From IMG/VR virus record IMGVR_UViG_2744054987_000003, positions 1-64,000 of that record: a stretch of 64,000 bases of DNA, one strand, 5' to 3'. Below the pieces are notes generated by a model. That model saw only the letters and a program-made list of their open reading frames with translations, ran no database searches and was not told where the DNA came from. This document shows positions 23,860 through 33,624 of the stretch, one piece after another. Every line of letters begins with the position of its first letter. The first letter of the stretch is position 1. The DNA is from a virus (lineage: Duplodnaviria > Caudoviricetes). A program made the position numbers and the translations under genes.

Positions 23860-24774
23860 CTAGTTCACCGTACGTACGCTGGCCTGCCGGACATTGGGGC
23901 CGTGGTAACCCCACTCGTAGTAGCTGTCGCCGTTCTGCCATAGATGCTTGGCGGGCACCGTGGTCTGAATGACCGGCCAGTCCTCGTCGCCGCCTTCTCT
24001 CCTGGCGTGTTGCTGCGCATACTCTAGCGAAGGGGTAACCCAGTCACCGGTATTGAAGGTGCCGTTCCCGTGCGGGAGCGCACGGTAGATGGTCACCGGC
24101 GCTTCCGGCTTACCACGGATGTCGTTGTAGAGCCGATGAACCTGTCTCATCTCTCGCGAGCTAACCTCGCCAGGGGCTGCGTAGTACTGCGGGTGGGTGT
24201 ACCAGTCCTCGGGTACACCGCCCATCTCATCGCTACCAGTCATGTCGTGCACGGGAAAACCTGAGTCAGGGCCGGGAGCCAGATGGTGTCCGCGATAGTC
24301 CTCGGCGGCATGCACTCGATGGCCGCGCTGGTCTTTGGGTCGAATGTCGACGATCTCGCCGGTGCCGTACTTGTCGTGGGTGATCACACCATCGTGGCCA
24401 GCATCGAGCAGAGCCTGCGAAAGTCCTTTGCCGGTCGCCCCGTACTGATCGGCCAGCGCTTTCTTCCAGCCGCCGTCGTCGTGGGTGAGACGCAGCGGGT
24501 TGGCGAAGGTGACGGTGCCGCGCTCCCAGCCGGGCTGTAGCGCGCTGTCGGGAGCGCTGTCCTCGCTCATGTAGCGCCCCCACGGCTCGACTGCCTGGTC
24601 GAAGTCGCCGGGACCGGCGTGCTGGCGCAGCCCGTTGTTGTTGCGGATGTAGCGCATCACCACCGGCGCATCCTTGGCAGCCACTTTGACGAGGGTAGTC
24701 TGCGCGGCCAGTTCCGGGTTCCAGAACGCGGCAAGTTCCACCTGCTCGCGAGCAGTGATGATCCTGCGTGCCAC
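23860..24774 (-). CDS. RRIITAREQ-tagged polyprotein with two ADP-ribosyltransferase-like domains
   Basis: GRY...FANPL...L-x-x-AGHDGVI...EIV (ART-PolyVal-like) and IYRALP...GDWVT-x-S-x-x-YA...EWGY. Confidence 0.65.
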   Translation of the reverse strand: MARRIITAREQVELAAFWNPELAAQTTLVKVAAKDAPVVMRYIRNNNGLRQHAGPGDFDQAVEPWGRYMSEDSAPDSALQPGWERGTVTFANPLRLTHDDGGWKKALADQYGATGKGLSQALLDAGHDGVITHDKYGTGEIVDIRPKDQRGHRVHAAEDYRGHHLAPGPDSGFPVHDMTGSDEMGGVPEDWYTHPQYYAAPGEVSSREMRQVHRLYNDIRGKPEAPVTIYRALPHGNGTFNTGDWVTPSLEYAQQHARREGGDEDWPVIQTTVPAKHLWQNGDSYYEWGYHGPNVRQASVRTVN

Positions 24775-24792
24775 GTCTAGCCCTCCTACCGA

Positions 24793-25701
24793 TTAGGGCT
24801 GCGTCTGCCGTGCATTGCGTCTCGCCGCAGAGATGGTCAGGCGGTGCAGCCCGACGAGCGTCAACTCGCTCAGCTCAGAGCCGACGTAGCCTCCGGCCAG
24901 GACGAACGCGACCGGGATGTCCTGCTGGAGGCACCAGTCGAAGACCAGTTGCTCGCGCTCGGCAAGCATCTGCATGTCGATGCCGACAAGACCGCCGACA
25001 GTGCAGCCCTCGTAAGGGTCCATGCCCGCGTTGTAGAGACATAGGTCGAACGGACCGTGCTCTTGTGCCCAGGCCAGCGCGTACTGAATGTTCGGCAGGT
25101 AGCTGTCGGCGTTGGATGATTCAGCCAGGAAGGCGTTGGTGCGCCGACCGGCGTTGTAGCCGTCGTAGCTACTCACCGACACGTCGGCGTGAACAATGCC
25201 GCGATCGTTTGCGATGCAGCGCACGGTGCCGCCGCCGCAATGCGCGTCGAGATCCAGGATGAGCACTCGCGACACTGCACCCTCATCACGCAGCGTGCGG
25301 GCAGCGATGGCCAGACCGTTGAAGGTGCAGAAACCCTCGCCGTAGCCCGGCTTGGCGTGGTGCAGGCCCGACGACAACGATCCGGCCACGCCGTCATCGA
25401 GCGCAGCGCGGGCAGCATCGAGCACACCGCCGTTGGTGACCAGCGTCATCTCCCACAACCCGGCGTCCCACTCGAAGCCCTGTGACTCGGCGAAACTGCG
25501 CGGCTCACCGGTACGCACCGCATCGACGTAGTTGGCCTCGTGAACACGCAGAATGTCAGCCTCGGCCAGCAGCTGCGGCTCGACGAGTTCGACACCGCTG
25601 ATCCGATTGTGGGTCAGCGAGTCGGCGATCCAGCCCGCTTTGCGTGTGGTGTCGAAGTCATGCTTCGAGAGCGTGTAAGCCGGGCTGTAGAAGACCTTCA
25701 C
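24793..25701 (-). CDS. Zn-dependent histone deacetylase-family protein (HDAC/AcuC-like)
   Basis: RVH-x-x-x-YV, GLHHA...GFCTFNG, DLDAH-x-GGGT, YNAGMD, AGGY. Confidence 0.92.
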   Translation of the reverse strand: MKVFYSPAYTLSKHDFDTTRKAGWIADSLTHNRISGVELVEPQLLAEADILRVHEANYVDAVRTGEPRSFAESQGFEWDAGLWEMTLVTNGGVLDAARAALDDGVAGSLSSGLHHAKPGYGEGFCTFNGLAIAARTLRDEGAVSRVLILDLDAHCGGGTVRCIANDRGIVHADVSVSSYDGYNAGRRTNAFLAESSNADSYLPNIQYALAWAQEHGPFDLCLYNAGMDPYEGCTVGGLVGIDMQMLAEREQLVFDWCLQQDIPVAFVLAGGYVGSELSELTLVGLHRLTISAARRNARQTQP

Positions 25702-26027
25702 CTGCCACTCATGGCACGTCGGGCCTGCTTTGCGCGGCGATTCTCACGAAACTCGCGCAGATGCTGCTCCAGTTCATGGTTCTTGCGTTCGCGGAAGTCA
25801 GCGGTGAGCGCATCCAGCTCGCGCGCCCTGGCCAGGTCGTCGGCGTAGTGGGCAACCAGCTGTTCGACAGGGATGTCGAGCTGGTGTGCCTCGATGCCGA
25901 TGGCCTCCATCAGCAGCTGTTCTTTGGACAGGTGCCCTTCGTGCAAGATGCTGTGTTTGGGCAGGTCGACGTCGGGGAAGTTGATCCCGAGGTTGTTCCA
26001 GTGCTCCAGAAATGTTTTGCTTGCCAT
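25698..26027 (-). CDS. Hypothetical coiled-coil protein
   Basis: AGGAGG RBS; coupled to the HDAC gene. Confidence 0.6.
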   Translation of the reverse strand: MASKTFLEHWNNLGINFPDVDLPKHSILHEGHLSKEQLLMEAIGIEAHQLDIPVEQLVAHYADDLARARELDALTADFRERKNHELEQHLREFRENRRAKQARRAMSGR

Positions 26028-32383: not shown

Positions 32384-32407
32384 CTGCTGTCTCCCTCTAC
32401 GCCTGCC

Positions 32408-32421
32408 CTCCCTTATTCAGG
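32408..32421 (-). promoter_or_regulatory. Late-type motif CCTGAATAAGGGAG
   Basis: Upstream of the fibre and polyprotein operon. Confidence 0.55.
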
Positions 32422-33624
32422 TCAGAGCAGGTCGTCAAAGGACTCGACAGCGGCCATCACGGTGCGCGGAGCTGATGGTGTGATGGTGTGAAACGGTGGC
32501 CTGCCGGTGCGGGGGGCCACGCGCATCTGGTCGACATCCATCTTCGCGCCGGGCAGCATCGTGATCTCCTGCTCACTGCGCCAGGGACCGCCGGTGTCTT
32601 GCCGGTAGGGGTCTTCGCCGACGCCCCTCCACGGCGAACGCAGTACCACAGAGTGCTCATCAGCGCGACGGTTGGTGCCAAACGCTCGCGCTATCGCAGG
32701 ATTGGTACTCCAGTGGGTGCCCAAACCCCCTCGACCACGCCGATTGGCGGGATCGTTCGTCAAGTAGTCCAGCACCCCGTTGAGGACTTCGTCATGAGCT
32801 ATGTTGTCGGGGTCAGCCTGGGCGCGATCCAAAGCACGCACAGCCCCCACGGGGATCTGGACGCCACGGTAGAGGTTGATGGGGTCGGTATCGAGCAGAT
32901 GTTCGGTGCCGGGCAACACAGGCTGTTCCGGCTCGGAATGAGTAAAGCGGGTCTCCGGCCGGGCGATGCTGGGGGACTCGGGGTTGACGTCATGCGGACT
33001 GTAGTAGGCGAAATCGTCTTCATACTGCAATCCGCGTCGCTTCTCCCCGGAGCCGGGCCGATCCCTGACGCGATAGCGAGACGGGTAGCGCTCATCTTCC
33101 TGTGCGGGGTGGTAGCTGGGGTACTGATCATAAGACGTGCTCATGGTGTAGACGAGGTCATCGTCTCGTGGATTGTCGTCAGACAGACCCCAGTCGTAGA
33201 GTTGGTTGACGAAATGATTTTGGGATTCGCGTGAACTACCGGCGTCCTGCGCCCAGCGATCGAGTGTTTCCGGCTCAACGCCGTTGAGCCAGTCGGGGAA
33301 GGCATCATAGGCTTCGGGGTGCATCTCCAGCAGATCGTCGTACCACGACGGCCCCGCCGCGTCCATCCCGCCTGATTCATGAGCGCGCAACCACTGCTGA
33401 CGAAGTTCTTCCCCGGTTGTTGCTGGACTGTCTTGCGGCGGAAGCGTGAACTTGCGCGGCGGCCAGGGCCAGCGTTCGTCGCTGACGTCTTCCAGAGACA
33501 TCTGCCTGGGGGCGATGGAGGCAGCAGTGCGGATCGTCCTGTCGATCTGGGCAGCATCGACCACGACGGGCATGAGACTGGCGATATGCCAGTTCTGTTC
33601 TGCGGCTGTGATGATGCGACGCAC
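32422..33624 (-). CDS. RRIITAAEQ-tagged protein with C-terminal R-S-E ADP-ribosyltransferase-like domain
   Basis: LYRG, HWSTN-x-x-IA-x-x-F, EQE. Confidence 0.7.
   Translation of the reverse strand: MRRIITAAEQNWHIASLMPVVVDAAQIDRTIRTAASIAPRQMSLEDVSDERWPWPPRKFTLPPQDSPATTGEELRQQWLRAHESGGMDAAGPSWYDDLLEMHPEAYDAFPDWLNGVEPETLDRWAQDAGSSRESQNHFVNQLYDWGLSDDNPRDDDLVYTMSTSYDQYPSYHPAQEDERYPSRYRVRDRPGSGEKRRGLQYEDDFAYYSPHDVNPESPSIARPETRFTHSEPEQPVLPGTEHLLDTDPINLYRGVQIPVGAVRALDRAQADPDNIAHDEVLNGVLDYLTNDPANRRGRGGLGTHWSTNPAIARAFGTNRRADEHSVVLRSPWRGVGEDPYRQDTGGPWRSEQEITMLPGAKMDVDQMRVAPRTGRPPFHTITPSAPRTVMAAVESFDDLL

Follow-up and report, generated by a model that had tools for sequence, protein, structure and literature searches.

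The stretch of DNA analysed here (the window) comprises the opening 64 kb of one virus record of 147,517 bp, IMGVR_UViG_2744054987_000003, and between positions 23,860 and 33,624 its minus strand encodes three proteins, P1, P2 and P3, which open with a shared short peptide, hereafter the leader. Six-frame translation of the window gives exactly three matches to the pattern RRI[ILVM]TA.EQ, all on the minus strand and one or two residues past the start codon of an open reading frame (ORF): P1 starts at 24774 (304 amino acids, aa), P2 at 28973 (975 aa from its ATG) and P3 at 33624 (400 aa). An earlier note on this DNA had described three proteins beginning with a common RRI[IL]TAxEQ tag; all three tags are real and stand at ORF starts, and the number was too low, as six leader-bearing ORFs are present genome-wide. 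By DNA and protein searches, the distant kin of this phage are the cluster C mycobacteriophages (Bixzunavirus, e.g., Alice), the Gordonia phages Skog and Pupper, Mycobacterium phage Phrappuccino and Rhodococcus phage E3, and nearly all genes of the 147.5-kb genome lie on the minus strand.

P1 (23860..24774, minus strand) consists of the leader and two modules that resemble ADP-ribosyltransferases (ARTs); its ORF was modelled with AlphaFold 2 on a 35-sequence alignment (mean pLDDT 79), and its module boundaries were taken from the ends of high-scoring segment pairs (HSPs). The leader, read from the sequence, covers aa 1-32 (MARRIITAREQVELAAFW...VKVA↓A, where the arrow marks a candidate cleavage position; 24679..24774, minus) and is predicted to form helices at aa 8-18 and 20-25. 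Module 1 (aa 33-156; 24307..24678, minus), here named the 'RNNNG' module, has an ART/RES-like fold according to its fold matches and ends in GHRVHA156↓A. The C-terminal module 2 (aa 157-304; 23863..24306, minus) appears ART-like from its fold matches and corresponds to phrog_2579 (E 1.4e-47). P3 (32422..33624, minus) is delimited by its ORF and model, and comprises a leader at aa 1-34 (MRRIITAAEQ...IRTA34↓A; 33523..33624, minus; sequence), a low-confidence acidic middle and a C-terminal ART-like module at aa 245-393 (32446..32892, minus), which is supported by alignment and fold matches and has an R-S-E-type pattern (LYRG, HWST, EQE).

P2 (26046..28973, minus) is a 975-aa polyprotein, the ATG of which overlaps the stop codon of an upstream virion-protein gene (TGATG). 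Behind its leader (aa 1-17, MGRRILTAREQHELRVA↓I, from the sequence; 28923..28973, minus) lies an acidic module with a net charge of -14 (aa 18-116; 28626..28922, minus), which matches phrog_3138 at aa 25-110 (E 5e-24) and ends in IRTA116↓G. It is followed by a small module ending in RKRA198↓A (aa 117-198; 28380..28625, minus), a relative of which, of the 'WERSFDGGGW' type, recurs in homologues, by a ParB/Srx-like module with an EGNHR motif that ends in KRHA373↓S (aa 199-373; 27855..28379, minus; phrog_3147, E 9.5e-55), and by a segment delimited from the sequence that ends in IRTA440↓D (aa 374-440; 27654..27854, minus). According to Pfam, the remainder (aa 441-975; 26049..27653, minus) is a very acidic Cys-/Trp-rich region followed by a GNAT-like module at about aa 789-915 (nt 26229-26609, minus), the latter also placed by alignment to the homologues P0020 and P0029. 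Residues 441-768 carry a net charge of -49 and contain two Cys-rich CBM_14-like repeats and Trp-rich acidic repeats. The Pfam match to CBM_14, a chitin-binding peritrophin-A domain, has an E value of 4.1e-5 and 24.1 bits against a cutoff of 22.1; such repeats are odd in a phage effector polyprotein.

The strict leader motif matches four times in the whole genome, in 4/4 cases at an ORF N-terminus. The fourth copy belongs to P4, a 743-aa head-module protein (genome 120995-123226, minus, start at 123226). With a looser leader pattern, 6/6 matches of the six-frame translation stand at ORF N-termini on the minus strand. These include a 167-aa ORF (genome 115999-116502, minus) with the leader MSMIRVLTQAEQYPWRVSA↓ followed by an ART-like LWRG...NWWT pattern, and a 134-aa ORF (genome 109334-109738, minus) with the leader MRIATQAEQFGLPERHA↓, which is flanked by the genes for the tail tube and the tail assembly chaperone. 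The first 18 aa of the P1 and P4 leaders are identical, and their codons differ at ten synonymous and no non-synonymous positions; as the codons differ only synonymously, the leader is under selection as a peptide. The same comparison, ten synonymous against zero amino-acid differences, rules out the leader as a nucleotide-level element. The leader carries a charge of +1 to +2 and every cargo segment is net acidic, a generalization of the mostly acidic domains that the earlier note had pointed out.

The leader occurs in relatives of this phage as well. It opens gp165, gp166 and gp173 of Skog and gp98 and gp99 of Alice, and a hidden Markov model (HMM) built from nine leaders finds four copies in this genome, three in Alice and three in Skog. 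The third Alice match, at 64245, lies outside the set used for the model, in a GNAT-only protein of about 140 aa that starts V-RIVTAREQYEMLSPWLREA↓MP. This protein appears to be the 'gp113' that the excerpted text of Iyer et al. 2017 (PMC5512222) names as a solo GNAT among the late genes of Alice. A degenerate DNA scan of IMG/VR for R-I-x-T-A-R-E-Q gave 29 matches in 26 loci, comprising 23 N-terminal leaders, one internal leader and five unrelated sequences. Among 50 homologues and relatives of P1, P3 and P4, 32 begin with a long or short leader according to a regular expression, and two more were recognized by eye, one behind a mis-called start and one in a truncated gene call. A tblastn search of an annotated phage collection with the 25-aa leader returned four Gordonia phage records at E 0.2-0.4, the query being too insensitive.

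From these copies, the leader consensus reads M-x-R-R-I-[IVL]-T-A-R-E-Q-x-[ED]-[ML]-L-x-P-W, behind which come one to three residues and then Ala or Gly. In the IMG/VR leaders that bear P/C-W, Ala or Gly stands 3-5 residues past the Trp in 21/21 cases, and the P3 position of this candidate site is Arg in 16/21 and Ile or Val in 4/21. A short form, M-I-E-R-Q-A-E-Q-W-P-H-R-T-A↓, is found on P3-type ART proteins. The N-terminal RR pair and the small residue at the predicted cut site might recall a host-directed export signal, such as a Tat-like twin-arginine signal, or another non-virion signal. In Tat substrates, however, the RR pair precedes a hydrophobic core, and signal-peptidase sites have a small residue at position -3. 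The leader has the charged REQ.E instead of a hydrophobic core, carries Arg at the P3 position and is confined to phage late gene blocks; therefore, export is an exceedingly improbable function of the leader.

Among the cargoes behind the leader in relatives are modules of the ART-like, ParB, GNAT, NrdH, papain-fold toxin and DUF7178 types, the order of which is shuffled, and the minimal architecture is a leader with a single ART-like module, about 170 aa in total. In a metagenomic ORF (L042; 1311 aa, from 1582, plus strand), three leader copies occur with a different cargo behind each, and in a related metagenomic ORF (L037; from 11462, plus strand), two leader copies and a degenerate third each precede a different cargo. 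One cargo of these two polyproteins bears a YDCSGL motif, presumably typical of NlpC/P60 peptidases, and another is DUF7178-like. As leader copies stand inside polyproteins, a free N-terminus is not required. Internal leaders fit fused units of tag and cargo and also fit a protease-recognition cassette. In the latter case, the leader would be mainly a docking helix that marks a cut, and targeting would be achieved by other parts of the protein or by co-assembly. The placement of a leader right before each cargo in L042 and L037 is in keeping with such a cassette, as is an internal partial leader ending in PWREA↓A in the homologue P0006. However, most internal junctions have a short basic-x-Ala linker and lack the helix, which indicates that a site can be defined without the helix, and the minimal proteins of leader and cargo share nothing else that could target them. 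A role restricted to protease recognition is thus quite unlikely.

Two further leader classes were found. The second, MSDxWGLW or MSDFGLFEA, is present on an 891-aa head protein (genome 141834-144509, minus; L006:13834-16509), Alice gp81, P0020, P0021, P0027 and P0028, and the third, MCYGC...[VH]TA↓A, on Alice gp75 (L001:6380-8089), P0033 and P0035. As both front the same kinds of modules as the RRI leader, the latter is one of several putative addresses.

The modules are separated by short basic linkers that end in Ala, and each of those quoted in the earlier note was found in its place: VKVA32↓A, HRVHA156↓A and RQA298↓S in P1; LRVA17↓I, IRTA116↓G, RKRA198↓A, KRHA373↓S and IRTA440↓D in P2; and IRTA34↓A in P3. 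The pattern [RK].A occurs 34 times in the tagged proteins, compared with 18.4 ± 3.8 times in within-protein shuffles, of which 0/500 reach 34. In eight head-module proteins, 90 occurrences stand against 55.3 ± 7.2 in shuffles (0/300), and all other ORFs show a small excess (342 against 313.8 ± 14; 2/60 shuffles). Homology breakpoints, defined as the internal ends of BLASTP alignments in an all-against-all comparison of 54 proteins, were scored for [RKH].[AG] within 5 aa. The motif is near 21 of the 22 breakpoint clusters with at least 10 HSP ends (5.2 expected), 40 of the 60 with at least six ends (14.3 expected) and 61 of all 146 with at least two ends (34.5 expected), where the clusters are phylogenetically dependent and many represent one junction in related proteins. 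Despite this dependence, the junctions link different pairs of modules. None of the control motifs [DE].[AG], [ST].[AG], [RKH].[LIV], [RKH].[DE] and [PQN].[AG] is enriched at the breakpoints, and the reversed motif is weakly enriched (23/60, 15.7 expected). Basic-x-Ala/Gly sites are accordingly far more frequent at the best-supported module boundaries than expected by chance; the earlier note had named a lack of such an excess of R/K-x-A as evidence against its proposal.

Individual junctions agree with this result. In P0005, a relative 92% identical to P1, the junction GHRVHA↓A is kept with another module behind it, and an extra module is inserted between RRTA↓M and ERRA↓T. The ParB module is flanked by RKRA↓A and KRHA↓S in P2 and by MARA↓A and LRTA↓A in Alice gp75. 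The homologues are mosaics of 'RNNNG', C-terminal ART-like, ParB-like, GNAT, NrdH-like, papain-fold toxin and DUF7178 modules in varied orders; the 'RNNNG' module recurs at shuffled positions, and 18 of the 39 HSPs listed for P1 start at aa 152-159. In the P1 model, pLDDT falls below 50 only at aa 25-33, 51-54 and 153-164, and two of these three segments hold the candidate sites A32↓A33 and A156↓A157; both sites are thus predicted to lie in disordered linkers.

Such linkers could also arise without proteolysis, as flexible connections or as relics of ORF fusion in which an old C-terminus meets an old start Met; the leader would then be an uncleaved interaction or regulatory motif. This explanation would suit three observations: the residue directly past the site is very often Met (as in RTA↓M, RRA↓M and RLG↓M), the motif forms the C-terminus of some proteins (such as P0033, ...GHRVA), and a look-alike site in the capsid protein is not conserved. 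The enrichment is, however, oriented and motif-specific, with five flat controls beside the 40/60 breakpoint clusters (14.3 expected). Furthermore, Arg at the P3 position and Ala/Gly at the P1 position are kept at the leader end even where no Met follows, and the sites that flank the ParB module are positionally conserved with Alice even though the linker sequences differ. This explanation is therefore considered very unlikely.

The nature of the cargo was assessed from fold matches, PHROG and Pfam profiles, and motifs. For module 1 of P1, the structural aligner VIA-align, which warns that a Z below 8 can reflect a common arrangement, gives weak matches to NatT (8qnl; Z 5.6, rmsd 4.3, 109 aligned), PARP1/2 (Z 4.4-4.6), MbcT (Z 4.2) and ParT (Z 3.9). 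Module 2 matches a CNFy domain (Z 5.5, rmsd 3.1, 88 aligned), TreX (Z 4.8), Arr (Z 4.1) and pertussis S1 (Z 3.7), and the best Foldseek E value for the P1 modules is 0.065. The ART-like module of P3 matches TreX (Z 5.6, rmsd 3.6, 99 aligned), pertussis S1 (Z 5.2), PltA (Z 4.8) and LT-A (Z 4.8); ART-type entries make up nearly all of the 50 VIA-align rows listed for it, and its best Foldseek match is cholera toxin A (E 0.12). The matches of all three modules are almost wholly of the ART type, including PARPs, tankyrases and diphtheria-, pertussis-, cholera- and LT-type toxins, together with Rhs ART toxins, Arr, Tpt1/KptA and RES/MbcT/NatT/ParT toxins in the same lists. In an 11-sequence alignment of the P3 family (A3), Y252, R253, G254, H304, W305, E351 and E353 are near-invariant, and R253, H304-W305-S-T and E351-x-E353 fit the R-S-E class of ARTs. 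Because weak but thematically uniform fold matches coincide with this catalytic-type pattern in P3, the ART-like label is accepted here; from the models, the C-terminal module of P3 is likely ART-like and both modules of P1 are probably so. No Pfam family was found for P1 or P3 at E up to 0.1. PHROG labels ART-like modules of the P1/P3 type as 'ParB C-terminal domain', which probably reflects frequent fusion to ParB and not ParB function.

In P2, ParB-like PHROGs match aa 238-377 with E values between 1.1e-5 and 1.7e-3, and the module shares 65% identity with aa 204-331 of Alice gp75, annotated as ParB-like. It also contains the EGNHR motif, of a G-x-H-R type that we take to be a mark of the ParB/Srx superfamily. 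These sequence features moderately support a ParB/Srx-like module at aa 199-373. The GNAT region matches Acetyltransf_1 (E 0.0042, 17.8 bits against a cutoff of 20.7) and Acetyltransf_7 (15.7 bits against 27), both below the Pfam cutoff, and aa 789-974 align to P0020 and P0029, the corresponding region of P0020 carrying precomputed PF13508 and PF00583 domains; the GNAT-like call is likewise moderately supported by sequence. Hence, among the cargo assignments of the earlier note, the ParB/Srx-like domain is borne out by PHROGs and its motif and the GNAT holds moderately, while the three ARTs stand weakly, with Z at most 5.6. For P4, no Pfam family was found at E up to 0.01 except DUF7178, and a search of the ESM Atlas gave no usable match for its N-terminal module. 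With two ART-like modules in P1, ParB-like, GNAT-like and other modules in P2, and architectures that are shuffled among homologues, these proteins qualify as polyvalent. As the earlier note had remarked, MuF is not evident: by Pfam, P1, P2, P3 and P4 contain neither MuF nor MPTase nor any other hub or autopeptidase domain.

The genes of these proteins stand in late or structural contexts. The strict late-type motif CCTG?AAT.GGT, a candidate late promoter, has five matches in the genome, all on the minus strand; among them are copies ahead of P1, of P3 and of the first gene of the P4 pair, which is translationally coupled to P4. The copy CCTAATCGGT (24788..24797, minus) lies 23 nt upstream of the P1 start and abuts the Shine-Dalgarno sequence, and the copy CCTGAATGGGT (33642..33652, minus) lies 28 nt upstream of the P3 start. 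The P2 operon is headed by the variant CCTGAATAAGG (32411..32421, minus), upstream of its first gene, which encodes a fibre-like virion structural protein of 1136 aa (28973..32383, minus; phrog_2824 'virion structural protein', E 9.2e-285) and to which P2 is translationally coupled. The statement of the earlier note that each tagged gene is directly behind the late-type motif or in an operon starting with it is thus correct. P4 starts 3 nt past the stop codon of the preceding gene. The 167-aa ORF likewise starts 3 nt past that of a phrog_2791 gene, which is conserved, and the ORFs at the corresponding position in Alice and Skog do the same. All leader copies are located in late or structural gene blocks, P4 within the head module, and the tag was not found on early non-virion proteins, an occurrence that the earlier note had named as evidence against its proposal.

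An inverted repeat, GAATGGGTGA ... TCACCCATTC, is present just 5' of P3 (window 33625-33652, minus), where it encloses a GGAGG Shine-Dalgarno sequence and overlaps the late-type motif; it could form a translational hairpin. Between P1 and P2 lies a gene of the histone-deacetylase family that has no leader (window 24793-25701, minus; Hist_deacetyl, E 5.6e-34), and the counterpart in the matching neighbourhood of E3 is gp202, a 'putative histone deacetylase'. This E3 neighbourhood matches in the deacetylase, the fibre, the P4 homologue and a GNAT-ART protein. There, gp204 is the counterpart of the 1136-aa protein, annotated as 'putative tail fiber', with gene order kept, and gp205 is a P4 homologue (44.5% identity over 79% of the query) that lacks a canonical leader and carries the GenBank label 'structural protein'. 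This label, the sole proteomics-derived sign of virion presence, is a hint that such proteins are virion components.

The gene context also bears on the destination of the proteins. Instead of the head interior, the leader could direct virion assembly or attachment at another site, such as the neck, baseplate or tail, or be a signal for an assembly chaperone, in which case the proteins might be largely uncleaved structural or enzymatic virion components. This idea draws on the 134-aa ORF next to the tail tube gene, on the 167-aa ORF behind the phrog_2791 gene, on Skog gp165 and gp166, whose genes have minor tail protein genes on one side and the sheath gene on the other, on the coupling of P2 to a fibre-like protein gene and on L042 modules that resemble cell-wall hydrolases. 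Nevertheless, P4 bears the same leader within the head module, the same basic-x-Ala grammar is seen throughout the head polyproteins and where the protease domain ends, and the single-enzyme cargoes of about 170 aa (leader and ART) have no obvious structural role. A destination outside the head interior is hence unlikely.

The head module is located at about 120-145 kb of the genome and encodes, in order, the 891-aa Alice gp81-like protein, a portal protein, a 2H-phosphoesterase-like protein, a 1144-aa LysM protein, a 1475-aa protease-domain protein, a 180-aa protein and the 333-aa major capsid protein, which has more than 1,000 relatives at E ≤ 1e-10. The earlier note had expected a prohead protease outside the window. 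A candidate is the N-terminus of the 1475-aa head polyprotein (genome 129622-134049, minus; L005:9622-14049), which matches the 'head maturation protease' phrog_18299 (E 1.4e-14); the position of this candidate agrees with the expectation. The protease domain is interrupted by an intein, and a long acidic, scaffold-like region lies downstream. The domain ends in VANN(RR/K)TA↓ both in this phage and in Alice, as expected if the protease frees itself from the polyprotein. An RKLTA↓A site near the N-terminus of the major capsid protein was considered as evidence of protease specificity and rejected, since Ala is present in 13/28 homologues and the site is not conserved; therefore, it gives no independent read-out of specificity.

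The intein in the candidate protease domain is marked by Pfam hints of Hint and Intein_splicing and by CLVAGT...VHNC borders, and the same domain is uninterrupted in Alice gp90. A 694-aa protein (genome 113957-116041, minus; L004:9957-12041) matches phrog_36001 at aa 59-447, the same intein-like family as the intein of the protease gene, and may represent a second intein within a structural gene. For residues 1000-1475 of the 1475-aa protein (L005:9625-11052, minus), the homologues P0169, P0172 and P0190 have their start at an internal Met, the counterpart of residue 60 in this stretch. These starts suggest a nested in-frame scaffold gene, for which lambda C/Nu3 and the herpesvirus protease-scaffold pair are precedents, and they could also be a gene-calling artefact on fragments. 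The whole record (G000) is labelled in IMG/VR as a provirus that is about 96% complete, and two of its proteins are also on file from a 439,518-bp contig. The provirus label is surprising for kin of lytic cluster C myoviruses and may reflect integration, chimeric assembly or a classification artefact.

These features can be combined into a mechanism for a Bixzunavirus-like actinobacterial myovirus, built by analogy with T4. An N-terminal leader of about 17-34 residues, consisting of an amphipathic helix (M-x-RRI[IVL]TAREQ-x-E-x-L-x-P/F-W) and a short spacer usually ending in R-x-Ala or R-x-Gly, would work in the manner of the T4 capsid-targeting sequence (CTS) and dock each protein onto the core of the prohead during assembly. 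The prohead protease, putatively the N-terminal domain of the 1475-aa polyprotein, would then remove the leader and, within the basic-x-Ala/Gly linkers, cleave behind the small residue. The acidic enzymes released in this way, each with a single domain (ART-like, ParB/Srx-like, GNAT-like or other), would stay in the head and enter the host along with the DNA. We hold this reading, leader-tagged polyvalent effectors with a T4-CTS-like capsid-targeting propeptide and release by a prohead protease, with moderate confidence. It retains the proposal of the earlier note, a peptide-addressed set of injected effectors, insofar as the leader is real at the peptide level, the context is late and the sites are at boundaries. 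It amends the proposal in that the leader is also internal, two other leader classes exist and the capsid look-alike site is unconserved.

Several observations weigh against this mechanism or complicate it. Some leader genes are in tail or neck blocks and not in the head block; leaders are also internal, with up to three per polyprotein; and two other leader classes front the same kinds of modules. No leader is found by the HMM in E3, the one relative whose record labels proteins as 'structural protein'. Regarding the linkers, the breakpoint clusters are not independent, Arg/Ala-rich linkers could contribute to the enrichment, and Met follows many sites, as in simple gene fusion. Every fold match is below the level that the aligner trusts (Z below 8). 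The protease family could not be named by Pfam at E up to 10 or by a sequence search of the PDB with the first 190 residues, which gave spurious rows (Radical_SAM, E 0.001; zinc fingers), so that the PHROG label phrog_18299 alone remains, and the capsid protein site is not conserved. A more general scheme would be a grammar of address and cut, in which at least three interchangeable leader classes (RRIVTAREQ..PW, MCYGC..TA↓ and MSDxWGLW/MSDFGLFEA) and uniform R-x-Ala junctions recruit any enzyme module, single or strung, to the prohead, where the head protease frees each of them. This generalization is offered tentatively, as a possibility that falls somewhat short of probable.

The proposed mechanism has counterparts in known systems. 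According to the excerpted text of PMC9026906, the T4 CTS is a 10-residue propeptide that is sufficient for head targeting, gp21 removes the propeptides, and Alt is a head-packaged ART. As in T4, where the CTS is carried by IPI-III and Alt, a short N-terminal propeptide stands here on dissimilar proteins with a candidate protease site directly behind it, an ART is among the cargoes of a myovirus, and the loading of varied proteins into the virion seems evolvable. As far as that text allows comparison, the two peptides differ in that they share no sequence similarity and in that the leader here has about 17-34 aa with a conserved helix, compared with 10 aa in T4. The predicted cut is after Ala/Gly with Arg at the P3 position, whereas T4 gp21 cuts after Glu. 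Moreover, the cargoes here are acidic multi-domain polyproteins with internal sites and a leader that can be repeated internally, in contrast to the small basic proteins of T4, and the present system is known from sequence alone.

For polyvalent proteins, Iyer, Burroughs, Anand, de Souza and Aravind (2017) had already predicted packaging and delivery with the DNA, according to the excerpted PMC5512222. The proteins described here resemble those in that text in bearing several effector domains (ART, ParB/Srx, GNAT and others) per polypeptide, in their extensive shuffling and in their late or virion context. They differ in having no MuF, MPTase, hub or autopeptidase domain by Pfam and in the common leader and the uniformity of the basic-x-Ala linkers, features that point to the prohead protease as a processing enzyme acting in trans; a term search of the text of PMC5512222 found no description of the leader and linker grammar. 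In the same text, the Dar/Ddr system of phage P1 is similar, with head-internal anti-defence proteins that include a ParB-domain protein and with packaging tied to capsid morphogenesis and proteolysis. For Dar/Ddr, that text proposes autoproteolysis via an MPTase domain, unlike the situation here, and no common leader family shared with the present phage was seen.

Giant phages provide a further comparison in the excerpted PMC10052503. Many head proteins of phiKZ, 201phi2-1 and SPN3US, which have gp175/gp245-type proteases, carry N-terminal propeptides, as proposed here; in SPN3US, these comprise 20-254 residues and are removed by the prohead protease gp245. A giant-phage propeptide can contain more than one cleavage motif, the proteins are packaged alongside the genome and ejected, and the protease is self-processed on its C-terminal side (PMC10052503). 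Their motif ends in Glu instead of Ala, no shared short leader is reported in that text, and their hosts and lineage differ.

Two other systems illustrate how the proposed mechanism could work. Herpesvirus assemblin is a protease fused to a scaffold and cuts after Ala in a short motif, and in encapsulins, a short peptide docks cargo inside an HK97-fold shell, the tag being C-terminal and not removed.

Capsid-targeted, protease-processed, head-packaged effector sets and polyvalent proteins are known as such, and head-packaged ARTs in myoviruses are an established prediction. The present case differs in combining a defined leader that is widely shared, linkers of one uniform code where other systems have MuF or a peptidase domain of their own, and a predicted Ala/Gly at the P1 position. 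The strings IVTAREQ, IITAREQ, ILTAREQ and RIVTAR had no mention in a phage context in the literature searched, which covered few subscription journals and no supplements, so that a mention may be missed. In the literature on capsid targeting, prohead proteases and Bxz1/Bixzunavirus virions, no description of the leader or of head proteolysis in cluster C phages was found, and the excerpted text on the Myrna capsid (PMC7150772) has 0 occurrences of 'cleav' or 'protease'.

If the proposed mechanism is true, polyvalent effectors could be cleaved in trans, with the head protease reading a simple code in their linkers, and not by their own peptidase domains. Under the more general scheme, the leader of about 20 residues could serve as a transferable tag with which foreign proteins are packed into mycobacteriophage heads and brought into mycobacteria, and such a short tag would provide a T4-CTS-like tool for actinobacterial hosts, with reporters or enzymes as possible loads of the virion. 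It would also make an early phase of infection, before transcription, accessible to testing, with ADP-ribosylation, acetylation and a ParB-type nuclease or NTPase as candidate activities. Furthermore, the repertoire of injected proteins would be readable from sequence alone for a very large and well-sampled phage group, including the cluster C mycobacteriophages.

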